Assembly: GCA_964562045.1 (NCBI GenBank)
Contig: CAZLRR010000002.1
Coordinates: 1 to 58,414 of the forward strand
Reading direction: 5' to 3'
Source of the DNA: an uncultured Methanosarcinales archaeon
GTDB taxonomy: Archaea > Nanobdellota > Nanobdellia > Woesearchaeales > UBA583
Length of the DNA stretch: 58,414 nucleotides
How positions within the stretch are numbered: the first letter of the stretch is position 1; every line of letters begins with the position of its first letter. Shown piece after piece: positions 3,098-57,693 of this stretch. The position numbers and the translations under genes were made by a program. The notes below the pieces were generated by a model, which worked only from the letters and a program-made list of their open reading frames with translations, did no database searches and was not told the origin of the DNA.

Positions 3098-3665
3098 TAA
3101 AATTGCAATAATTATGGTTGGGGCCCCTGGAAGTGGAAAAGGTACACAAGGAGAGCTTTTGGCAAAAAATACTGGTTTTAAAAAGTATGTTATGAGTGAT
3201 TTGATTAGAAAGGATATAAAACCTGGAAGTGAGTTATTTGATAAGATGAAGAAGGGGCTTCTTTTGACAAATGATGACGTTTTTAAGGTTTTTAGAGACC
3301 AGTTTAAAGGCGAAAAAAAGGTTATTATTGATGGAATTCCTAGGACTTTGGATCAAGCTTATTGGTTATATGGTTATTTGGTGGAGAATGGTTATACAAT
3401 AGAAGTTATTTATTTGAAGTGTGATGAAAAAAAACTTTTGAAAAGGATTTTGAAAAGAGCAGAGGAGCAAGGAAGAAGTGATGACAATAAAGAGATTTTT
3501 AAACATAGATTAGAAGAGTTTGATAGAGCAAGAGATGTTATTTTGGAGGTTTATTCTAAAGAAATAGTTCAAATAAATGGAGATAAAACAATTGAAGAAA
3601 TTTCAAGGAATATTTTAGATAAATTAAACAATAAATTGGATTTAAAATTTAAAGTTAAAAAATGA
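3087..3665 (+). CDS. adk: Adenylate kinase (short type)
   Basis: It has the P-loop GAPGSGKGTQ and the GIPRTLDQA motif. I placed the start at the first ATG (3087), not at the GTG at 3078 used by the ORF track. Confidence 0.85.
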   Translation: MVGNKIAIIMVGAPGSGKGTQGELLAKNTGFKKYVMSDLIRKDIKPGSELFDKMKKGLLLTNDDVFKVFRDQFKGEKKVIIDGIPRTLDQAYWLYGYLVENGYTIEVIYLKCDEKKLLKRILKRAEEQGRSDDNKEIFKHRLEEFDRARDVILEVYSKEIVQINGDKTIEEISRNILDKLNNKLDLKFKVKK

Positions 3666-9056: not shown

Positions 9057-9354
9057 CCTTTATATTTTTTGGTTTTGAGCTTTATATATTTTTGGTAGAG
9101 GTGAGATTATTTTTTTTATTTTTAAATTTGACAAATAGTTTTATAAATTCTAAACACCTCATATTTCTTATGGAGAAGAAAAACTTAGTAAAAACTAGTG
9201 ATTGTCGGCCTAGACAATAGTTTATACTATAAAATTTCTTCAATAAAGGGACTTCCCGTATAATTCTAAATTAAAACAAAGACAACAAAGACTAGTATTT
9301 ACTAGAAACAAATTATTATTCGTATTTGAAATCACTTCAATTTAAAAGAAATAA

Positions 9355-9440
9355 AACCTCCCTCCTCCTCCTAAAAGTTCAAGTAAACTTAAACTTTTAG
9401 CCACACACCGAGGGTTCTTTGATTAAATGAAGAGATTTCC
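9355..9440 (+). repeat. R1 repeat family, short fragment: pyrimidine box, short hairpin, and a CCACACACCGAGG tail
   Basis: The tail ccgagggttctttgattaaatgaagagatttc is nearly identical to 51999-52029. The box cctccctcctcc matches the R1 inter-module linker. Confidence 0.7.
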
Positions 9441-11147: not shown

Positions 11148-11158
11148 TTTCATTTTGT

Positions 11159-11264
11159 TCCTTTGAATACCCCAACTTTTAAGTTGGGGATGAAACGTAT
11201 ATTTTAAGGGAGTGGTTAATACTCTATCATTTAGGCGCCAATAACTCAAATTTGTCGATTTTTG
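11159..11264 (-). mobile_element. R3 small insertion element, 106-bp copy, in inverted orientation relative to the copy at 47974-48104
   Basis: It aligns with the reverse complement of 47974-48104, including the hairpin ccccaacttttaagttgggg and the end motifs. Flanks are tttgt / tttat. Confidence 0.7.
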
Positions 11265-15530: not shown

Positions 15531-18500
15531 ATGGAGAGTTTTCCAATCATTGAGACCAGAAAAATTGAGGATTATGGTGATGATTCCAGTGTAGATTTGG
15601 CAGTGGAGACTATGAAGCAAGGAAAACAAGTTTTGATTTTTAATAATTCTAAGAGAAGTAGCGAGGCAACAGCAGATAAAGTTGCAAAGAAATATGTTGA
15701 AAGAGCAAATAATGAAGAACTTGAGAAGCTTTCTGAACAGATTTTGAAAGTATTACCAACTCCAACAACCCAGTGTAAAAGGTTAGCAAATGCGGTAAAA
15801 AAAGGTGTAGCATTTCATCATAGCGGTTTAGTAGGAAAACAAAGATCTTTAATCGAAAATGCATTCAAGCAAGGAATTTTGAAGGCGATTTCGAGCACCC
15901 CAACACTATGTTTGGCAAAAGGAACTAAGGTTTGGTCAAATAATAAAAAAATTTCTATAGAAAAATTAAAAACAAATCAGGTTTTCGCATTAAAAGATTC
16001 AAGTTTGAATTTAATCAAACCAGAAAAAGTTGAAAATAATGGGTATAGTGATGAATTAATTGAGATTGAAAGTGTTTCGAGTCATAAAATTAAAGCAACA
16101 AAGAACCACAAATTTCTGATTAGAAGGAAAGGGAAGAAATTAATTTTGCAAGCAAACGAAATTAAGAAAACTGATTTGATTGCAACAGTAGGAAAAATTG
16201 AGATTAAAGAAAAAAATTTGATGTTTTCACAGTTTATTTTGGACAATTCTTTTCCTCTTGAAGATAAAGAAATTCCTGCAGAAATATTTTATTTAATTGG
16301 TGCAATGTTGGGTGATGGTTATTCTGGGGCTGAGAAGAAAGGCAACAAAATAAAATATAAGGGAAGTCCTTCGATTGTTGGAGTTGATAATGAAACTTTT
16401 GACAGGGTTCGGTTTTCGTGCAAACTTTTAAGAATTTCTTATAGGAAAACAAAAAATATCTATGGGACTCCCCAGCTAGTATTGGGAAAAAATAATTGGT
16501 TTAGGGAATTTTTAGTTAGGTGTGGTGTTGATGTTAGTGTTAATAAAAACATTTCAGAAGAGTTGAAGTTGGCAAGTAAAGAGAAAATTTCTAACTTATT
16601 AAAAGGGCTTTTTGACACGGATGGTTATGCAGAAAAAAGAGGACAACTCGGATATTCTAGCATTTCTTTAGATTTAATTAAAGATGTTCAAGAACTGTTA
16701 TACAGGTTTGGTATTACATCTAGAATTAGAAAAAGAAAGAAGAAATCAATTAGAATTTCAAATAAAGAATATGATTGTAAAGATTCTTATGAATTAATAA
16801 TTGCTGAAAACAATTCTATGTTAAGCTTTTTTAATAATGTTGGTTTTAATATCAATAGGAAAAAAGAAGTTTTAGATGAAATAATTCATAAAATTCAACA
16901 AAATATTTTGTATAAAGAATGTAATTTTTGTAATTATAAGTTATATTCTGATTTGTTTGGGGGAAGAACAAAAAGTCAAAAAGATTGGGGAAATGCAAAA
17001 CTCTTAATAATAAAAAATTTAGAAAAGTTTGGTCCTTTAACTTCAAAAGATTTAACTAATAAAGTTGGGTTTGAAATTAGAAAGAATAGTTCTAGATTAA
17101 ATCATCACTACGAATTAATTGGAAAAACAAAATTTAGCAAATATGATTGGACTTGGAATTTAAATTCTATTGGGAAAACAATTTCTAAGGAATTAAAAAA
17201 TTCGTCTTATGAAGAAATTTTTGAGAGAACAAATTGTTTAGTTTGTGGAAACAAATTAAACGAAAACATAAGGAATAATTGGAAAAATTCAAATAAGGAT
17301 GGAGATATTTTTTGGGATCAAATTAAATCAATTAAGAAAATTAAAGAAGAAGTTGAAGTTTTTGATGTTGTTTTACCCTCAGATGATTCAAATGATCATT
17401 TGTTTGTTGCAGAAGGATTTATAACGCATAATTCTGCGGGGCTCAACCTTCCAGCATATAAAGTTATTATTCGAGATTATAAAAGGTATTCAAGATTTGG
17501 TTTTGCAGATATTCCCGTCTTGGAGTTTCATCAGATGGCTGGGCGTGCAGGAAGGCCAGGTTTAGAATTTGTTGGGAAAGCTGTTGTTTGCGTAAAAACT
17601 GAAGATGAACTTGCAAGAGTTACGAAAAAATATGTTTTCGGACAGGCCGAAGAAGTTATTTCAAAACTTGCTGTTGAGCCAACTTTGAAAATGTACATGC
17701 TCTCTCTTATTGCAATGGACATAATCAATACAAAACAGGAAATTAAAGACTTTTTCAAAAATACTTTATATGCTCATCAGTACCAAGATCATGAAGCTTT
17801 TAATTTTAATTTATTTAGGATTTTGAACATTTTAAAAGATTATAGATTTATTTCTCAAGAAGACGATTATTTTATGGCAACACCAATTGGAAAGAAAGTC
17901 TCAGAGCTTTATTTAAATCCAGATACGGCAAATTATTTTTATTCTAATCTTGACAAATTTATTAAAAAATTTTCAAATAGTAAAATTGGTAAAAATGACA
18001 TATATTCACTTCTTTATTTTGTTTCAGACACTTTGGAAATGAAACCTTTATTTAGCATTAGGAAAAATGATGAAGAAAGGTTACAGCTAAGGGCAGAAGA
18101 AGTGGCAGATGGTTTGATAGTTGGATTTGATCCTTATGAGATGGATTATAAGCAGTTTTTATCTCTTTTAAAGGTGAGTGATTTGTTTTTGGATTGGATT
18201 AGTGAAAAAAGTGAGGATTATTTGTGTGATTTATATGGCGTAACTCCAGGAGAAATGCAGTTTAAATTTGAAATTGTTGATTGGCTACTTTATGCTCTGG
18301 AGGAAATGGCTTTGATGAAAAAGAGTATTTTTGTTAAGAATTATTTGACGAAATTACGTCAGAGATTCAAATTTGGAGTAAAGGAAGAACTTTTGATGCT
18401 AATTAAATTAAAGGGGGTTGGAAGAGTTAGGGCTAGAAAGCTATATAACGCAGGATTTAAGACTTTAAATGATATCAGGAAGGCAAGTTCAGATGATTTA

Positions 18501-18698
18501 GTTAAAGTTATTTCGTCTGGTCTTGCTTTAAGTTTGAAAAAACAAATTGAAGGGAGTGAGATTGGAGAAAACAAACTTGCTTTGCCAAGAGAACTTCGTG
18601 CAAAAGAAGTAAGCGATGAGGAGATTGAAGTTTTGCTAAATAACGAGAAAGAATTCGAGAAACAAAAGAAAGGTGGAGGATTATTAGATTATTTCTAG
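15531..18698 (+). CDS. Hel308/Ski2-type DNA helicase, C-terminal part only (RecA2, WH, ratchet and HhH domains), interrupted by an intein
   Basis: Motif IV region QVLIFNNSKRS is present. GVAFHHSGL and STPTL|intein|SAGLNLPA represent motif V. Motif VI is QMAGRAGRPG. The C-terminal HhH is LIKLKGVGRVRARKLYNAGF. There is no Walker A or DExH domain. Confidence 0.85.
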   Translation: MESFPIIETRKIEDYGDDSSVDLAVETMKQGKQVLIFNNSKRSSEATADKVAKKYVERANNEELEKLSEQILKVLPTPTTQCKRLANAVKKGVAFHHSGLVGKQRSLIENAFKQGILKAISSTPTLCLAKGTKVWSNNKKISIEKLKTNQVFALKDSSLNLIKPEKVENNGYSDELIEIESVSSHKIKATKNHKFLIRRKGKKLILQANEIKKTDLIATVGKIEIKEKNLMFSQFILDNSFPLEDKEIPAEIFYLIGAMLGDGYSGAEKKGNKIKYKGSPSIVGVDNETFDRVRFSCKLLRISYRKTKNIYGTPQLVLGKNNWFREFLVRCGVDVSVNKNISEELKLASKEKISNLLKGLFDTDGYAEKRGQLGYSSISLDLIKDVQELLYRFGITSRIRKRKKKSIRISNKEYDCKDSYELIIAENNSMLSFFNNVGFNINRKKEVLDEIIHKIQQNILYKECNFCNYKLYSDLFGGRTKSQKDWGNAKLLIIKNLEKFGPLTSKDLTNKVGFEIRKNSSRLNHHYELIGKTKFSKYDWTWNLNSIGKTISKELKNSSYEEIFERTNCLVCGNKLNENIRNNWKNSNKDGDIFWDQIKSIKKIKEEVEVFDVVLPSDDSNDHLFVAEGFITHNSAGLNLPAYKVIIRDYKRYSRFGFADIPVLEFHQMAGRAGRPGLEFVGKAVVCVKTEDELARVTKKYVFGQAEEVISKLAVEPTLKMYMLSLIAMDIINTKQEIKDFFKNTLYAHQYQDHEAFNFNLFRILNILKDYRFISQEDDYFMATPIGKKVSELYLNPDTANYFYSNLDKFIKKFSNSKIGKNDIYSLLYFVSDTLEMKPLFSIRKNDEERLQLRAEEVADGLIVGFDPYEMDYKQFLSLLKVSDLFLDWISEKSEDYLCDLYGVTPGEMQFKFEIVDWLLYALEEMALMKKSIFVKNYLTKLRQRFKFGVKEELLMLIKLKGVGRVRARKLYNAGFKTLNDIRKASSDDLVKVISSGLALSLKKQIEGSEIGENKLALPRELRAKEVSDEEIEVLLNNEKEFEKQKKGGGLLDYF
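15909..17432 (+). mobile_element. Intein (508 aa) with a LAGLIDADG homing-endonuclease domain, inserted in helicase motif V
   Basis: The N-terminus is Cys (CLAKGTKV) and block B is TKNH. The two dodecapeptide motifs are LIGAMLGDGY and LLKGLFDTDGYA. It ends in the C-terminal HN followed by Ser+1. Confidence 0.9.
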
Positions 18699-27799: not shown

Positions 27800-28084
27800 A
27801 TATATTTAATTTTTCTTTTCTTTATATTATCATTTCCCTACTGACAAGTGGAGTTTTTCAGTTTCCTCGTATTTCTATTAGTTAAAGGCTGTTTCTTGCA
27901 TTTTAGCAAAAGATTTATAAATGGTTTCTTACAGAATGGAGTAACGATGAAATAAAACCAAACACCTGGGTTTTATTGAGTTGAATTAGCTTAAAATTAC
28001 ACACTTACACTTTTGAGTTGGGCGTGATAACCCAATTCAATTTTTATGGATTGTTTTCATTTATGAAAGAAGACCAAAACATTT

Positions 28085-28148
28085 TTCTACTCAGTTCAGC
28101 ATTTCACAATAAAAATTCTACTCACTTCATTCGTTACATTTATAAATG
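28085..28148 (+). promoter_or_regulatory. radA upstream region: two direct 14-mers (ttctactcagttca, ttctactcacttca) followed by the TATA box tttataaat
   Basis: The 38-nt block 28111-28148 is shared (31 of 38 identical, same length) with 47493-47530 upstream of the DinD-like gene. Confidence 0.55.
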
Positions 28149-28264
28149 ACTTTTTTTTAAATTAATTATCTAAGATTTGGGTAGCCATTCTTAGAAGGTT
28201 TTTTTAGTTTTGATCCGAAAGGGCCTTGACAAAGTCATGCCGAAAAACTGAGCGAAAATGAAAA

Positions 28265-29227
28265 ATGGCTAATGAAAAAAAAGAGTTAACTATATCTGAT
28301 TTACCGGGAGTAGGTCCAACTACTGCAGAGAAATTGTCTGCTGCAGGTATTGATAGTCTTCTATCTATTGCTGTGTGTTCTGTAGGTACCTTGGTTGAAC
28401 TTGCAGGAGTTTCTGAAAATGTTGCACGTAAAATGATTCAAGCAGCAAGAGGAATGCTTGATATGGGATTTGAAACTGCAGATAAAATTTTGGAGAAAAG
28501 ACAATCTGTAAATAAAATTAAAACGGGCAGCTCTGCTTTTGATGAAATGATGGGCGGAGGTTTTGAAACTGGAGCAATTACTGAATGTTTTGGTGAGTTC
28601 GGTTCTGGAAAAACTCAGGTTGGACATCAACTTGCTGTTGCAGTTCAAATGCCTCCAGAACAAGGAGGTTTGGGAAAGAAAGTAATTTATATTGATACTG
28701 AAAATACCTTCAGGCCAGAGAGAATTATACAGATGTCAGAAGGTTTAGGACTTGACCCTGATGTAGCTTTAAAAAATATTAAAATTGCAAGAGCATATAA
28801 TTCTGACCATCAAATGCTTTTGGCCGAGAAGGCTGAAGATTTGCTTAAAGGTGAAGAGTATGGTGTTGTTGTTGTAGATTCTTTGACGGCGCACTTTAGG
28901 GCAGAATTTATAGGTAGGGGAACATTGTCCGAAAGACAGCAGAAACTAAATAAACATATGCATCAGCTTTTGAAAATTGCTGACATGTATAATGTTGCAG
29001 TTATTGTGACAAACCAAGTTATGTCAAAACCAAATGTTATGTTTGGTGATCCAACACAGGCAATTGGGGGACATATTGTTGGACACAGTTCAACATTTAG
29101 AATTTATTTAAGAAAAGGTAAGAAAGGTTCAAGAGTTGGTAAACTTGTTGATAGTCCAAACTTGCCTGAGAATGAGTGTGTATTTTATGTGAATTCAAGT
29201 GGTCTTTCTGATGAAGAGAAAGACTAA
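28265..29227 (+). CDS. radA: DNA repair and recombination protein RadA
   Basis: It has an N-terminal HhH ([17 protein letters not shown]), Walker [10 protein letters not shown] and Walker B VVVVDS. Confidence 0.95.
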
Positions 29228-29284: not shown

Positions 29285-29521
29285 ATGAATGTAATAGAAA
29301 AAAAAGCAAAACTTGCAGATTTGATTGAAGAATATATTGCAAATTCAAATAAAGAGTCAGAACTTCTTTCATATATTGCTGAACTCAGAGAAGATCCCGA
29401 TTTTAATGATAAGAAATTATTCAAAGATATTTTTGATGAGCTTATGAATGATTTACCTAATTTACCAAGAAAATATCTTAAACAAATTGCAGCAATAATA
29501 AGAGATTTTAATGATTTCTAG
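29285..29521 (+). CDS. Small acidic hypothetical protein (78 aa)
   Basis: The start is the ATG at 29285, because the ORF-track start at 29228 is GTG. I recognised no motif. Confidence 0.4.
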   Translation: MNVIEKKAKLADLIEEYIANSNKESELLSYIAELREDPDFNDKKLFKDIFDELMNDLPNLPRKYLKQIAAIIRDFNDF

Positions 29522-40366: not shown

Positions 40367-40846
40367 ATGGTTTTTAAAAAGTTTAAGGAAATGTTTTCTG
40401 CAAATGATGAAAGATATGAGGCATTGCACCATAGGCATTCTCAGTTAAAATCTGAAAATAAGGCTATTGTTGAGAGGTATGAGCGTAAACTTGAAGATTT
40501 TAGAAAGCACTCTAAAGAGGATTTTGCTAAAAATTTGATTGAGATTTTTGAAGCTTTTGAAGTTGCAAAGGCTGACAGTTTTAAAGTTCGTGCTACAGAT
40601 AAGGAAATTCAGACTTTGCTTATGGATTTAAATAAAGCAGAAAAGGTTTTGAGAGATTATATGCAAAAATTTGCTCTTGAAGAAATTACTGCAGGAGATA
40701 GGATGTATGACCCAGAAATTCACGAGGTTGCTTCATATCAAGATTCTAAAGGAATGCAGAAAGGAATAATTCTAAAAACCGTGAAGAAGGGTTTTAAGTT
40801 TCAGGGGGAAATTATTAAGAAACCAAAAGTTTTAGTAACTAAATAA
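40367..40846 (+). CDS. grpE: Nucleotide exchange factor GrpE (short form)
   Basis: It has a coiled-coil N-terminus and a C-terminal beta domain with MYDPEIHEVAS...GIILKTVKKGFKFQGEIIKKPKVLV. Confidence 0.8.
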   Translation: MVFKKFKEMFSANDERYEALHHRHSQLKSENKAIVERYERKLEDFRKHSKEDFAKNLIEIFEAFEVAKADSFKVRATDKEIQTLLMDLNKAEKVLRDYMQKFALEEITAGDRMYDPEIHEVASYQDSKGMQKGIILKTVKKGFKFQGEIIKKPKVLVTK

Positions 40847-45372: not shown

Positions 45373-47466
45373 ATGAAAAAAATATTTTTCGCAATTTTGG
45401 CAATTTTTATGCTCGGTTTTGCGGGTTGCATGGCTGTTGTTGACGGAAATAATGGAACAGATAATAGTTCTGTGATTTCTGATTTGAAATCTGATGATTT
45501 TGTTAAGATAGAGTCAAAAGCTCAGCTTCAAGAGTATTTGATTAAAAATACTGCCGAAAATTTTGTTTTCTCAGGTTTTAGAGGAGGTTTTGAAGCTAAA
45601 TCTTTGTCTGCAGATAGTGTGGCTCAAGAAAGTGGAACTTCTGGTTCTGGAGATTATACAACTACAAATGTCCAAGAAAAAGGTGTTGATGAAGCAGATT
45701 TAGTGAAAACTGATGGAGATTATATTTATGTTTTAGGAAATAATAATTTAATCATTTATGATGCTAAAAGTCCTGAGAATACTAAAGAGATTTTGATTAA
45801 AGAATTTGATGGTAATTACGAGGAACTGTTTATCACGAAAAATAAAGTTATTCTTCTTGGAAATGCAAGAGAAGAAGTTTGGAGAGTTGACGGATATAAT
45901 TTTGTGCCGAGAAAGTCTTTTGAGTATTCTACAAGTGTTCTGGTGTATGAGTTTGATGGAGAGAATATTGAAATTGAAAAGAATTATTCTTTGACTGGGA
46001 ATTATTATGATTCCAGACTTATTGGAGATGATTTGTATTTTGTTTCTCAAGAGTATGTATATGGTTTGTGGGAAGGTCCAATGCCCCTTTTAAAAGCAGG
46101 AGATGTTGAGATAGAGTCTGAATTTTATATTCTGCCAAATCCGCAGGGAAGTTATGTGACTTATAGTATTGCGGGAGTTTCTCTTGATGATTTGGAAGAT
46201 GCAGATGTTCAAAGTTTTATGGCAGGTTATGATACTACTTTTTATGTGAGCGAGAATAATATTTATTTCGCATCTAAAAAACCTTGGAGTTACCATAATA
46301 ATTTTGAGCAAAGAGTTGAAAGATTTGAAGAGGCTGTTCTTCCTTTACTTGATTTGAAAACTCAGATGAAAATTGAGGATTTAAGAAAAGATGAAGATAC
46401 TTATTTTGAAGATGTTGCAAAGATAATGCAAGAGATGTATGGGGAGTTGTCTGAGAAGGAAGCTGAGAATTTGGCAGAAGAGATTGAGGAATCATTAGAT
46501 GAGTATGATGTTAAAATGGCCAAGGAGAAGGATAAAACTGACATTTTTAAGTTGAGTCTTGATGGCGGAAAAGTTGAATTGGAAGAGAAAGGGGAAGTTA
46601 GAGGTTCTTTATTGAATCAGTTTTCTTTGAGTGAGTATGATGGAAATTTGAGGGTTGCTACAACTTCATCTTTTTGGTCAAATGAAAATGGCAGAGAACA
46701 GTCTAATAATGTTTATGTGTTAGATGAAAGTTTGGAAGTTATTGGAAGTCTTGAAGATTTGGCGGAGGACGAGAGAATTTATTCTGCAAGGTTTGAAGCA
46801 GATAAATTATATTTGGTTACTTTTAAACAAGTTGATCCTTTCTTTGTAATTGATTTGGAAGATCCAACAAATCCCGAGGTTTTAGGTTATTTGAAATTGC
46901 CAGGATTTTCTAAGTATTTGCATAAGATTTCAGAAGACGTTGTAATCGGAATTGGTCAGGATACAAAAGAGTCTGAGTGGGGAGGAGTAGTTACAAATGG
47001 TTTGAAGTTTACACTTTTTGATGTGTCAGACTTTGAAAATCCAAAAGAACTTGATTCATATTATGTTGAAGGAAGATATTCAAATAGTGAAGTTTTAAAT
47101 GAGCATAAAGCTTTTTTTTATGATGAATCTAGAAGTCTTCTTGCAATTCCTGTTTCAAAGTCTCGGGATTTAGATGAGAAGTATTATCGTGCAGAGTATT
47201 GGCAAGGCGTTTTAGTATTTGATTTAGAAAATAACGAATTTGATTTGCTTAAAGAGATTGAGCATTCGGAGTGGGGAGATAGAAATCGTTGGAATTCTGG
47301 AGTTAGGAGAGTTTTGAGAATTGATGAGGTAATGTTTACAGTATCTAATACTGAGATGATTTTAACTGATTTGGGAGATTTTAATCAAATCGAAGAATTT
47401 GAGTTTCCAGAGTCTGAACAATACGTAGAACCTTATTCTGGAAGTAAAGAGATTATGATTGAATAA
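45373..47466 (+). CDS. Secreted lipoprotein with a C-terminal beta-propeller domain (COG4880-type)
   Basis: It has the lipobox-like LGFAGC. The segments TNVQEKGVDEADLVKTDGDYIYVL, FSLSEYDGNLRVATT and YLVTFKQVDPFFVIDLEDPTNPEVLGYLKLPGFSKYLH are characteristic. Confidence 0.7.
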   Translation: MKKIFFAILAIFMLGFAGCMAVVDGNNGTDNSSVISDLKSDDFVKIESKAQLQEYLIKNTAENFVFSGFRGGFEAKSLSADSVAQESGTSGSGDYTTTNVQEKGVDEADLVKTDGDYIYVLGNNNLIIYDAKSPENTKEILIKEFDGNYEELFITKNKVILLGNAREEVWRVDGYNFVPRKSFEYSTSVLVYEFDGENIEIEKNYSLTGNYYDSRLIGDDLYFVSQEYVYGLWEGPMPLLKAGDVEIESEFYILPNPQGSYVTYSIAGVSLDDLEDADVQSFMAGYDTTFYVSENNIYFASKKPWSYHNNFEQRVERFEEAVLPLLDLKTQMKIEDLRKDEDTYFEDVAKIMQEMYGELSEKEAENLAEEIEESLDEYDVKMAKEKDKTDIFKLSLDGGKVELEEKGEVRGSLLNQFSLSEYDGNLRVATTSSFWSNENGREQSNNVYVLDESLEVIGSLEDLAEDERIYSARFEADKLYLVTFKQVDPFFVIDLEDPTNPEVLGYLKLPGFSKYLHKISEDVVIGIGQDTKESEWGGVVTNGLKFTLFDVSDFENPKELDSYYVEGRYSNSEVLNEHKAFFYDESRSLLAIPVSKSRDLDEKYYRAEYWQGVLVFDLENNEFDLLKEIEHSEWGDRNRWNSGVRRVLRIDEVMFTVSNTEMILTDLGDFNQIEEFEFPESEQYVEPYSGSKEIMIE

Positions 47467-47492
47467 AATTAGTAGAAAAATCTCTTTTTTCT

Positions 47493-47530
47493 AAAAATTC
47501 TACTGACTTCATCACTCAGTTTTATAAATG
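47493..47530 (+). promoter_or_regulatory. Promoter block of the DinD-like gene, shared with radA
   Basis: aaaaattctactgacttcatcactcagttttataaatg matches 28111-28148 at 31 of 38 positions. The TATA ends 21 nt before the ATG at 47551. An inverted agtagaa lies at about 47471-47478. Confidence 0.55.
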
Positions 47531-47550: not shown

Positions 47551-48496
47551 ATGGAAGACAAATTAATAATTTTTGAGGACAAAAAGATTAGGAGAATTTG
47601 GTTTAATGAAGAATGGTATTATTCTGTTGTTGATATTATTGAAGTATTAGTTGAAGCAAGTATTCCTAGGAGATATTGGTCTGATTTGAAGGCTAAAATG
47701 CAAAAAGATGAAGGTTTTGAGTTGTACGATTTTATCGTACAACTGAAATTAGAGGCTTCTGACGGGAAGAAATATGTAACTGATTGTGCTAATACAAAAT
47801 CTATATTTCGTATAATTCAGTCAATCCCATCAAAAAGAGTTGAACCTTTCAAACAATGGTTTGCTCAATTAGGAGAAGAAAGACTTGATGAAATTCAAAA
47901 TCCTTCATTAGCAGTTGAAAGATCTAGAGAATATTATAGAACAAAGGGCTATCCAAAAGCATGGATTGATAAAGAAAAAATCGCTGACTCACTCTATCTC
48001 CACCTAAAGGATGGAGTATTACGAGCGAGTCTTATTCGCGATTTTTAGTCATTCCTTAGAATATACATTTCATCCCCAACTTAAAAGTTGGGGTATTCCA
48101 AGGAATAAAAGATTAGAATCAACTCAAATAAGACAAGATTTGACTGACGAATGGAACGAAAGAGGAATAAAAGAGAGAAAAGATTATGCTATTTTAACTA
48201 ATGAAATTCATAAGGCTACTTTTGATAAGAACATTAAAGAACATAAAGAATTCAAAGATTTATCTAAGAGAAATAACTTAAGAGATAATATGACAACTTT
48301 AGAATTGATTTTTTCAATGCTAGGAGAACATGCAACTAAGGAAATAACTAAATCTAAAGATTCAACTGGCTTTGGCGAATGTTTTGATAGTGCTCAAACG
48401 GGCGGAAAAATTGCAGGAAATGCAAGAAAAGAACTTGAAAAACAAACAAAGCAAAAAGTAATTTCTAAGGGTGGCGAGGTAAAGAGGTTGGAGTAA
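47551..48496 (+). pseudogene. Bro-N / DinD-like (DNA-damage-inducible protein D family) gene, split into two ORFs by a 131-bp insertion
   Basis: The N-terminal part is IRRIWFNEEWYYSVVDIIEVL...SIPSKRVEPFKQWFAQLGEERL. The C-terminal part is RLESTQIRQDLTDEWNERG...NLRDNMT. Deleting 47974-48109 (136 nt) restores one 269-aa frame. Confidence 0.75.
47974..48104 (+). mobile_element. R3 small insertion element (131 bp) flanked by a 5-bp direct repeat (ataaa)
   Basis: The direct repeats are at 47969-47973 and 48105-48109. There is an internal near-perfect 20-nt palindrome ccccaacttaaaagttgggg nested inside attccttagaata/tattccaaggaat. A second copy lies at 11159-11264. Confidence 0.7.
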
Positions 48497-48969: not shown

Positions 48970-50820
48970 ATGGCAAAAGAAAAAGTATTAGGAATTGATT
49001 TAGGGACAACTAATAGTTGTATGTCTATTATTGAGAATGGAAAAGCGGTTGTTATTCCAAATTCTGAGGGTGGAAGAACAACCCCTTCTGTTGTGCACAT
49101 CACATCGAGTGGTGAGAGAATTGTTGGAGAGCCAGCAAAAAAACAAGCTATTGTTAAACCAAAAGAGACTGTTTCTTCAATTAAAACTCATATGGGTGAA
49201 GATTACAAGACAAATATTCACGGCAAAGATTACACTCCGCAGGAAATTTCTGCTATGACTTTAGCAAAACTAAAAAAAGATGCAGAAGCCTATGCAGGAA
49301 CAAAAATTAATAAGGCAGTAATTACAGTTCCTGCTTATTTTAGTGATGCACAAAGGCAGGCTACAAAAGATGCAGGAAAAATTGCAGGTTTTGACGTTGA
49401 GAGAATCATTAACGAGCCAACAGCAGCTGCACTTGCTTACGGAATGGATAAAGCAGATGCTCATAACGTTTTAGTTTTCGACTTTGGTGGTGGAACTTTT
49501 GATGTTTCAGTTTTAGAACTTGATGATGGAGTTTTCGAGGTAAAAGCAACAGCAGGAGACAATCATTTAGGTGGAGATAATATTGATAAAATCCTTGTTG
49601 ATTATATTGCTGATGAATTCAAAAAAGAACATGGAATTGATTTAAGAGAAGACCCTCAGTCAGCTCAAAGAATCAAAACTGCGGCAGAAAAAGCAAAAAT
49701 TGAATTATCCTCAAAATTAGAAACTGAAATTTCTGAGCCTTTTATTACTGCGGATGCAAGTGGTCCTAAACACCTTGAGATGAAAATTACAAGATCTAAG
49801 TTTAATGATTTAATTTCTGGAATTTTGGATAAACTAAAAAAACCAACAGAACAGGCGATTAAAGACTCCAAACTGAAAATTTCTGAAATCAATAAAGTTC
49901 TTTTAGTTGGAGGTTCAACAAGAATTCCTGCAGTTCAGGAACTTGTAAAATCTATCTCTGGAAAAGATGCAGACAAATCTGTAAATCCTGATGAGGCGGT
50001 TGCTTTAGGTGCTGCAATTCAGGCTGGAGTTTTAGCAGGAGAAGTTAAAGATGTATTGCTTTTAGATGTAACTCCTCTGTCTTTAGGAATTGAGACATTA
50101 GGTGGTGTGTTTACAAAAATGATTGATAAAAACACAACAATCCCAACTAAAAAGTCTCAAGTTTATTCAACTGCTGAAGATAATCAGAGTGCTGTAACTA
50201 TTAGAGTTGCTCAGGGAGAGAGGGCAATGTTTGCTGACAATAAATTGTTGGGTCAGTTTAATTTAGAAGGAATTCCGCCTGCGCCAAGAGGTGTTCCTCA
50301 GATTGAAGTTACATTTGACATTGATGCAAACGGTATTGTTAATGTAAAAGCAAAAGATTTAGGGACTGGAAAAGAGCAGGAGATAAAGATTGTTGCATCC
50401 TCAAATCTAACTGATGAAGATATTAAAAAGATGCAAGAAGAAGCAGAAAAACATGCTGAAGAAGATAACAAGAGAAAAGAAGAAATCGAAACAGTAAATA
50501 GGGCGGAAAATCTTGTATACCAAACTAAGAAAACACTTGATGAGAATAAAGATAAAGTTGACCAGAAACAAGTGTCTCCTTTAATGGAGCAAGTAAAAGA
50601 ACTTGAAGAACTTCTAAAAGCCGAAAAAAGAGATATTGAAAAAATCAAAGCAAAAGAAGAAGAAATCACTAAAAAAGCTCAGGAAATGTATAGTGCAATG
50701 TATCAACAAGCTGGGGCTCAAACAGGCGCTGAGGGTCCAAAAGAAGATAAAAAGGAAGATGATGTAGTCGATACGGAAGCTACAGAAAAAGATAAGAAAG
50801 AAGATAAAAAGAAGAAATAA
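48970..50820 (+). CDS. dnaK: Molecular chaperone DnaK (Hsp70)
   Basis: It has [15 protein letters not shown] and [11 protein letters not shown], and a Lys/Glu-rich C-terminal tail. Confidence 0.97.
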
Positions 50821-56553: not shown

Positions 56554-57693
56554 TTAACTAAAAAAACCTTTAATTCTTGAAAAGAAATTTTTATCTTTCA
56601 AAGTTTTAGCATAATCTCCTAAAATTTTCTTTTGTTCTTTTGTAATTTTTGTTGGAATTTCAACATTAACTTTAACATACAAATCTCCATAGCTATTATA
56701 GTTTAAGTATGGCATTCCTTTATTTTTCAAACGTAGAACTGTTCCGGGCTGAGTTCCTGCAGGAATTTTCAAGAGCAAATCTTTTTCAAAATGTTCAATT
56801 TCTACTTCATCTCCAACAATTGCTTGGATAAAATTAACATCTAAAGTCATATACAAATCTTCTCCTTCAACATTGAAAATTTTATTTTCATTAACGAAGA
56901 TTTTCACATATAAATCTCCGTAAGTTTCGCTTTGTGGGTCATAACTTCCTTTGCCCTGAATTCTGAGCATTGTTCCTGAAGAGACACCTTTTGGAATTTT
57001 TATAGTTACTTTTTCTTTCTTTTTTATTGTCCCGCTTCCATTACATTTTTCACAGGGATTTTTAATAGTTGAACCTTCTCCATGACATTTTGGACAAACT
57101 TTTTGGGTTCTCATCATACCAAGAATAGTTCTTTGAGTCTGGACTACAAATCCTTGCCCGCCACATTCATCACATGTTTGAACATCTTTTTTATTTTTTG
57201 TTCCAAGGCTGCGACATTCATCACATATGTCGTCTCTGGAAATTGAGATTTCTTTTTCAGTTCCGAAATATACTTCTTTTAAATCAATTTCTGTTTCTGC
57301 ATAAACTCTGGTGTCAGCTCTTCTTTGAGTTCTGGAATGACCTCTTCCGCCTCCTCCAAAGCCACTAAAACCTCCAAAACCGAACTGTTCAAATATGTCG
57401 TCAATATTAATTCCGAAATCTTCTGGGTTGAATCCTCCTCCCCCGAATCCTCCAAATCCTTGAGGTCCATCTGCTGTTCCGTATGTGTCATATTGTTGTC
57501 GTTTTTGGTCGTCGAGTAAAACTCCTGCAGCTTCATTTATTTCTTTAAATTTTATCTCGGCGTCTGTTTCTTGTGAGATGTCAGGATGATATTTTTTTGC
57601 GAGTTTTTTATATGCTTTTTTAATATCTTCTTTCGAAGAATCTTTACTTACTTCTAATATTTTGTAATAATCTTTGCTTGCCATTTTTAACAT
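56554..57693 (-). CDS. dnaJ: Molecular chaperone DnaJ (type I Hsp40)
   Basis: It has a J domain with HPD, a G/F-rich linker, and four CxxCxGxG repeats (CDECRSLG, CDECGGQG, CPKCHGEG, CEKCNGSG). An alternative start is at 57684 (MASKDYY). Confidence 0.95.
   Translation of the reverse strand: MLKMASKDYYKILEVSKDSSKEDIKKAYKKLAKKYHPDISQETDAEIKFKEINEAAGVLLDDQKRQQYDTYGTADGPQGFGGFGGGGFNPEDFGINIDDIFEQFGFGGFSGFGGGGRGHSRTQRRADTRVYAETEIDLKEVYFGTEKEISISRDDICDECRSLGTKNKKDVQTCDECGGQGFVVQTQRTILGMMRTQKVCPKCHGEGSTIKNPCEKCNGSGTIKKKEKVTIKIPKGVSSGTMLRIQGKGSYDPQSETYGDLYVKIFVNENKIFNVEGEDLYMTLDVNFIQAIVGDEVEIEHFEKDLLLKIPAGTQPGTVLRLKNKGMPYLNYNSYGDLYVKVNVEIPTKITKEQKKILGDYAKTLKDKNFFSRIKGFFS

Follow-up and report, generated by a model that had tools for sequence, protein, structure and literature searches.

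A candidate regulatory box shared by the promoters of radA and a DinD-like gene in a DPANN archaeon

In a 58,414-nt stretch of archaeal DNA ("the window"), one short element precedes both radA and a DinD-like gene, and its distance from the TATA box is equal in the two promoters. The 14-nt core of this element, TTCTACTSACTTCA, lies within a 20-nt block, and from its sequence and placement we think that it is probably the site of a sequence-specific regulator that controls both genes. Within these 58 kb of one genome, the box is found at these two promoters only. The box is also found upstream of radA in some of the window's relatives, and across dozens of more distantly related genomes, radA and DinD-like genes are paired in the same way, with a different box at the same position in the promoter.

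The window is about 30% GC, and the closest RadA loci are from metagenome-assembled genomes (MAGs) that are labelled as Woesearchaeota or Nanoarchaeota (DPANN). The best match to the window's RadA has 82-85% amino-acid identity. The source organism is a DPANN archaeon that is Woesearchaeota- or Nanoarchaeota-like. DPANN archaea are uncultivated, and their regulons are approachable only through sequence. For archaea other than the Sulfolobales, hardly any evidence of a transcriptional DNA-damage network is known to us. The box at radA and the DinD-like gene is a concrete cis-element with a set of targets, which can be used to seek the regulator and to predict its regulon.

The two promoters in the window

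The sequence-only reading of this DNA had described two 38-nt blocks of equal length, one upstream of radA (28111-28148, AAAAATTCTACTCACTTCATTCGTTACATTTATAAATG) and the other upstream of a DinD/Bro-N-like gene (47493-47530, AAAAATTCTACTGACTTCATCACTCAGTTTTATAAATG), that are identical at 31 of 38 positions. We reproduced all of these coordinates and counts, and also a further copy of the 14-mer that lies 31 nt upstream of the proximal copy at radA (28085-28098, 13/14 identical). The identities of the two genes hold as well: radA matches Pfam Rad51 (8e-94), and the other gene matches both Bro-N and a DinD model. The features of the two promoters, with scores from a position weight matrix (PWM) for the box, are:

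28085..28098, + strand: distal box copy of radA, TTCTACTCAGTTCA; 13/14; PWM score 20.8
28111..28130, + strand: proximal box of radA, AAAAA-TTCTACTCACTTCA-T; PWM score 21.7, the top match in the window
28116-28129, + strand: 14-mer core of the proximal box; about -53 to -40 from the predicted start site
28131..28138, + strand: spacer of the radA promoter, including the BRE position, TCGTTACA; not conserved
28139..28148, + strand: TATA box of radA, TTTATAAATG; the same 10-mer is at 47521
28169..28255, + strand: structured 5' leader of radA, with hairpin P1 at the predicted start site (TTATAAA + 29)
28265..29227, + strand: radA (RadA/Rad51 recombinase, 320 aa); Pfam Rad51 PF08423, 8e-94
47464..47477, - strand: weak inverted box copy, TTCTACTAATTTTA, which contains AGTAGAA; PWM score 12.9, in the background range
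47493..47512, + strand: box of the DinD-like promoter, AAAAA-TTCTACTGACTTCA-T; PWM score 19.9
47498-47511, + strand: 14-mer core of this box; -53 to -40 from the ATG/start site
47521..47530, + strand: TATA box of the DinD-like gene, TTTATAAATG; 29 nt from TTATAAA to the ATG

The similarity of the two blocks is a mosaic. The segment made up of five A's, the box, and a T (AAAAATTCTACTSACTTCAT) is identical at 19/20 positions and the TATA box (TTTATAAATG) at 10/10, while the spacer between them, at the BRE position, is identical at just 2/8 (TCGTTACA for radA vs. CACTCAGT for the DinD-like gene). The 40-nt flanks of the blocks are at background (12/40 and 17/40). This pattern indicates that selection has acted on two discrete elements, and that the similarity probably did not originate in a recent duplication.

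The geometry is also fixed. The start of the box is 23 nt from TTTATAAA in both of the window's promoters and in the radA promoter of a relative (L002; L numbers designate loci from other genomes and contigs), and it is 24 nt from TTATAAA, which is the equivalent spacing, in L001, L003, and L004. The downstream end of the box is 9 nt from the TATA box, at about -40 and about 2 nt from the BRE position. Its 14-nt core, TTCTACTSACTTCA, lacks dyad symmetry. The distal copy at radA has the same orientation as the proximal copy. At the DinD-like promoter, the inverted AGTAGAA that the sequence-only reading had pointed out is present (47471-47477), but the wider inverted copy around it scores no better than background, and its significance is doubtful. 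The radA TATA box is part of a palindrome, CATTTATAAATG, at 28137-28148.

These positions relative to the start site are predicted from the spacing between the TATA box and the start codon. For radA in L001, L003, L004, and L266, the ATG is 28-29 nt from TTATAAA, a spacing that suits leaderless mRNAs with a start about 29 nt past the TATA box. The DinD-like gene in the window has the same geometry as radA in L001, L003, and L004, which implies that its mRNA would be leaderless too. By the same 29-nt rule, the window's radA transcript should start near 28169, and the proximal box would then span about -53 to -40 and lie close to the BRE position, on its upstream side.

Between this predicted start and the radA gene is the structured leader, which has hairpin P1, then a conserved GGUUUUU, and then an 8-bp long-range stem, P2 (28204-28211 with 28244-28251). 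The leader also contains two U-runs. It is found in L002, L005, L201, L205, L206, L264, and L268 as well, with GGUUUUU invariant, and P2 is kept, with compensatory changes, in all 8 of the 8 distinct sequences from relatives. L001, L003, L004, and L266 have no structured leader. We found no match to any Rfam family in the leader or in the rest of the window. On the other side of the promoter, in the intergenic region between radA and a T2SSE ATPase gene, there is a second perfect copy of TTTATAAATG (27914-27923), followed by a short hairpin and a U-run (27953-27978, AAAACC...GGGTTTTATT). These may belong to a tiny transcript or to a divergent promoter that serves the T2SSE ATPase gene.

The box is specific to these two promoters. 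When at most one mismatch is allowed, the window contains 3 matches to the 14-mer, as compared to 0.03 expected from shuffled sequences, although only the third match is independent because the pattern was derived from two of the sites. A PWM scan of the window gave scores of 21.7, 20.8, and 19.9, and then a gap down to 13.8. All three copies of the 14-mer in the 58 kb are at the radA and DinD-like promoters. The sequence-only reading had named a dispersed repeat as an outcome that would overturn its proposal; with three copies, all at two promoters, the box is not a dispersed repeat or a MITE. The same reading had also raised the possibility that other repair genes carry the box, and this did not work out within the window: hel308, nreA, and also gyrB, all of which are in the window, lack it.

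We also searched for a composite pattern, TTCTAY-N5-TCA with a TATA box at the fixed spacing, in 1.19 Mb of sequence (the window and 80 radA loci). The matches were the two promoters in the window, the radA promoters of L001, L002, L003, and L004, and one further match each in the window and in L047, both probably due to chance. We also scanned collections of viral and metagenome contigs, which evidently contain neither the window's genome nor the relatives that carry the box. In viral contigs, a scan with a 15-mer gave chance matches among the matches listed, and the composite had 11 matches, which are chance matches in coding regions; none of the 11 is a radA or DinD promoter. In metagenome contigs, the composite had 38 matches, which we likewise put down to chance, and none of these is a radA or DinD promoter, with the possible exception of L227. 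Of the matches from the metagenomes, this one (positions 781-812 of contig CEPX01195138.1) alone is both intergenic and followed by a ribosome-binding site (GGTGA) and a 248-aa open reading frame. It may be one more genuine example of such a promoter, in a different archaeon.

The boxes of related genomes

The expectation that the box would be conserved upstream of radA in relatives was borne out in part. In the window's own clade, the box and the TATA box are upstream of radA, at identical spacing, in 3 of the 10 lineages that we sampled. The other 7 lineages (L005, L201-204, L205, L206/207, L264/265, L266/267, and L268/269) have other sequences at that position. The clade includes the complete genome CP060218. 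Across 80 relatives, the 14-mer was not found upstream of radA, either exactly or with up to two mismatches, and the conserved core was found by reading the sequences after that search gave none. L001, L003, and L004 keep the block ATTCTACTCTTCTCACACAAAAACCTTATAAA upstream of radA, with a local variant of the box, TTCTACTCTTCTCA, while the flanks have diverged. Their RadA proteins are 94-98% identical, and we count them as a single observation because they form one tight subclade. The radA promoter of L002 has TTCTACCAATTTCAGTAGAA, with the arrangement TTCTAC-N8-GTAGAA, which is the only variant that forms a dyad. The assemblies with these loci are JBLKOJ01 (L001), JAYYJK01 (L002), CAZULG01 (L003), and JAIUMM01 (L004). 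In a neighbor-joining tree of RadA from the clade, the window branches basally, so the box may plausibly be ancestral in the clade and have been replaced later.

In some of the clade's other loci (L205 at 9854, L206, L266 at 3953, and L268), TTTTTATCC-N4-TGAAAC-N-AAAG lies directly before the radA TATA box. This is loosely similar to the origin recognition box (ORB) of archaea. We rejected an ORB pattern of this kind (TCCA-N3/4-GAAAY-N-AAR, upstream of radA in L205 and L266) because about 11 matches are expected by chance in 1.4 Mb, which makes it not significant. The TATCC...GAAAC block may simply be a BRE-like sequence.

More distant relatives (L006-L080, with 62-69% identity to the window's RadA) have another box, CACTGGACA, and the complete genome CP060219 is of this type. 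In 53 of these 75 loci, CACTGGACA precedes the TATA box of the radA operon by exactly 13 nt (for example, L012 at 3588-3617 and L028 at 9326-9362), often in tandem (CACTGGACACTGGACA) or with CACT before it at a 7-nt periodicity. At the same spacing, CACTGGACA precedes 8 of the 9 distinct DinD-like/Bro-N genes that we sampled (L024 at 6757, L043 at 492, two in L257, and L258, L270, L274, and L276). The exception is in L260, where the DinD-like gene overlaps an upstream gene. Elsewhere in about 1.1 Mb, CACTGGACA occurs only at nrdR (L018), at a DUF4258 gene (L049), and at one small open reading frame. The neighbors of these distant DinD-like genes include genes for RadB-like proteins, NurA, HhH-GPD glycosylases, and PD-(D/E)XK nucleases.

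In these distant loci, radA is immediately preceded by a gene (in L028, for instance, from about 9540) that encodes a conserved protein of about 100 amino acids (80-115 aa), with the motif PEKKFxxGxIxATVWxN...RSYKDxxGxWxxTxSLRxxDLPKAxLVLxKAYEYL. It is in one operon with radA, behind a leader of 100-180 nt. The protein has no sequence match in Pfam, NCBIfam, or PDB, and its gene is absent from the window and from the loci of the window's clade.

To align the window's box with CACTGGACA, a gap is needed, and the register relative to the TATA box is shifted by 2-3 nt, so the two boxes cannot be taken as homologous. In this group of archaea, then, radA and DinD-like genes are repeatedly paired through one promoter box, and the sequence of the box differs by lineage. 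Because the pairing is found independently in many other DPANN archaea under another box, a shared regulator is the best reading. In the literature that could be searched, we found no description of the window's box or of CACTGGACA, nor of any promoter motif from DPANN or Woesearchaeota.

How the box might act

Archaeal activators usually have their sites directly upstream of the BRE, at a fixed distance and with a second copy further upstream, while characterized archaeal repressors usually overlap or follow the TATA box or the start site. The sites of Ptr2, TFB-RF1, and GvpE, for instance, are immediately upstream of the BRE, are often two, and have a fixed geometry to the TATA box. The window's box is in a similar position, but the sequences and the regulons are different, and we identified no homologs of these three regulators here. 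Like an archaeal upstream activating site, the box lies directly upstream of the BRE and the TATA box at a fixed distance; it also has a second copy at radA and is not palindromic. Together these features argue more for an activator site than for an SOS-type operator. The sequence-only reading had proposed that the box might be the operator of a damage-responsive regulator. Co-regulation of the two genes is supported, by the specificity of the box and by the recurrent pairing, but a non-palindromic site upstream of the BRE and TATA box does not look like an operator of the LexA type.

If so, the regulator would bind the region from about -53 to -40, with one spacer, the BRE position, between its site and the TATA box, and at radA it might also use the second copy, three helical turns further upstream. 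Judging from this position, the most likely mechanism would be an upstream-bound activator that recruits or stabilizes TFB/TBP; the sign could instead be negative, with access to the BRE being blocked. The signal might be DNA damage or replication stress, as suggested by the combination of a RecA-family recombinase with a homolog of DinD, a modulator of RecA filaments. We infer the protein binding, the sign of the regulation, and the inducing signal, and the link to damage comes from the identities of the genes: in E. coli, recA and dinD are both regulated by LexA (PMC6590174); DinD is reported to act on RecA filaments (Uranga 2011, cited in PMC4849656); and nrdR is part of the parallel regulon in one genome.

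We consider it unlikely that the box is instead bound by an SOS-like repressor, which would keep TFB from the BRE and leave after DNA damage. The pair of a recA homolog and a dinD homolog does mirror the LexA regulon of E. coli (PMC6590174), and with the end of the box about 2 nt from the BRE position, steric interference is possible. Among archaea, however, the known damage regulators Orc1-2 and Sta1 activate such promoters (PMC6061795, PMC2175319). The SOS box of LexA is a palindromic operator that overlaps the bacterial promoter, whereas the window's box is non-palindromic, overlaps neither the core promoter nor the start site, and lies wholly upstream of the BRE and TATA box, which is not where archaeal repressors are usually found; the resemblance is in the targets only. 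Also, to our knowledge, LexA is not expected in archaea.

It is less likely still that the box is an extended core-promoter element that is read by an alternative general factor, a paralog of TFB or of TBP, with no dedicated regulator. The strictly fixed distance to the TATA box in all copies would suit such an element, and a TFB gene adjoins radA in two relatives (L206/L207). But the spacer between the element and the TATA box, at the BRE position, is not conserved, a second copy 31 nt upstream would be unexpected for a core element, and we saw no TFB paralog in the window.

The two promoters might also share ancestry but not regulation, if one of the two genes obtained its promoter as a copy of the other's, and we view this as very improbable. 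Bro-N/DinD-like genes are widely exchanged (the best homologs of this one are from Aenigmarchaeota, Methanoperedens, and others), and the local copy bears a mobile-looking insertion. Against this, the identity of the promoters is a mosaic rather than uniform, and other lineages have the same pairing under another box; besides, a functional promoter that was copied would still co-regulate the two genes. Finally, chance resemblance between two strong, AT-rich promoters, in a genome of about 30% GC and a window where the TATA 10-mer (TTTATAAATG) alone occurs 4-5 times, is effectively refuted by the excess of 14-mer matches over expectation (3 vs. 0.03) and by the radA promoters of other genomes, where the box has identical spacing.

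We return to the reading that we favor, a site for one regulator of both genes. The only well-established archaeal damage regulon that we know of is that of Orc1-2 and the damage-response element (DDRE) of the Sulfolobales. Like the window's box, the DDRE (5'-ANTTTC-3') is a short promoter-proximal element at a few damage-response genes; an activator binds it, and induction depends on it (PMC6061795). But its hosts belong to the Crenarchaeota rather than to DPANN, and its targets are ups, ced, and tfb3, with radA not being induced, instead of radA and a dinD-like gene. ANTTTC is absent from both strands within the 110 nt upstream of the radA and DinD-like starts. Sta1 of S. solfataricus acts on sso0777, a radA paralogue (PMC2175319), and is a case of positive promoter control of a damage-linked RecA-family gene, as we propose here. 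However, its site (TTATT/CANGNA/TTATT) is unrelated in sequence to the window's box, and it involves a single promoter with no DinD-like partner.

A further lead is the ORB or mini-ORB element, whose consensus is CTTCCAGTGGAAACGAAAGGGGT with the variant TTCCACTGGAAAC (PMC4153887, PMC4164010). The box of the more distant relatives, CACTGGACA, contains CCACTGGA, which is an exact 8-mer of the core variant TTCCACTGGAAAC; by our estimate, the probability of this by chance is roughly 5e-4 per comparison. The window's box has a weak match to the left half only (TTCTACTG vs. ORB TTCCACTG, 7/8, with a chance probability that we estimate at about 0.03). Relative to the core dyad of ORB, TTCCA-N-TGGAA(AC), the window's box has no right half, and CACTGGACA matches at 8/8 plus 1. 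Other features of ORBs are missing at the box as well: the full dyad, the G-string, clustering around an AT-rich unwinding region, and an adjacent orc1/cdc6 gene. Instead, the copies of the box keep a fixed distance to a TATA box, at radA and at the dinD-like gene. Neither the window nor the related loci (about 1.4 Mb) yielded an orc1/cdc6 gene, and a search with a Walker-A filter returned only RadA itself. The 8-mer shared with CACTGGACA hints at a regulator of the Orc1/Cdc6 type, which we treat as a hypothesis because no orc1/cdc6 gene was found and ANTTTC is absent.

In a broader and quite speculative scenario, which we would not bet on, both boxes (CACTGGACA in most lineages and TTCTACTSACTTCA in the window's) derive from the ORB core and are read by an Orc1/Cdc6-family protein, as part of a small SOS-like regulon that is conserved among DPANN archaea. 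Its members may be RadA (often with its partner of about 100 amino acids), DinD-like proteins, and sometimes NrdR. If this were true, then the principle of the Orc1-2 damage response of Sulfolobus would extend across archaeal phyla. The box makes it possible to ask if proteins of the Orc1/Cdc6 type act as damage regulators beyond the Crenarchaeota.

The DinD-like gene and other features of the window

Full-length homologs of the DinD-like protein, which several sources call DNA-damage-inducible protein D, have about 280 amino acids. In the window, the reading frame is broken after WIDK by an insertion:

47551..47973, + strand: N-terminal part of the DinD-like gene, with the Bro-N domain; corresponds to residues 1-144 of the homologs of about 280 aa
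47974..48109, + strand: structured insertion of 136 nt that breaks the frame; dG -47.9 kcal/mol
48107..48496, + strand: C-terminal part of the gene, in the +1 frame; matches positions 144-226 of DinD model NF008573

The 3' 57 nt of the insertion are repeated, at 93% identity, on the minus strand at 11153-11209, just 3' of the prolyl-tRNA synthetase gene. The repeat includes a hairpin, CCCCAACTT-AAAA-GTTGGGG. We considered an intron of the bulge-helix-bulge type, but the minimum free energy fold of the insertion shows no bulge-helix-bulge. The insertion may be a miniature mobile element, or the DinD-like gene may be a pseudogene. Since the gene is disrupted here, its promoter could be a relic.

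The dnaK gene (48970-50820) is about 470 nt downstream of the DinD-like gene. Along with grpE (40367-40846) and dnaJ (56554-57693), it is dispersed over 17 kb, and the three do not form a single operon. At 15531-18698 there is a gene for a Hel308-like archaeal helicase that contains an intein with a LAGLIDADG endonuclease domain. Directly after radA, at 29285-29521, is a conserved gene of unknown function that encodes 78 amino acids. In L264-L269, a gene for 77 amino acids holds the syntenic position and is followed by a gene of about 830 amino acids on the opposite strand and by secDF.
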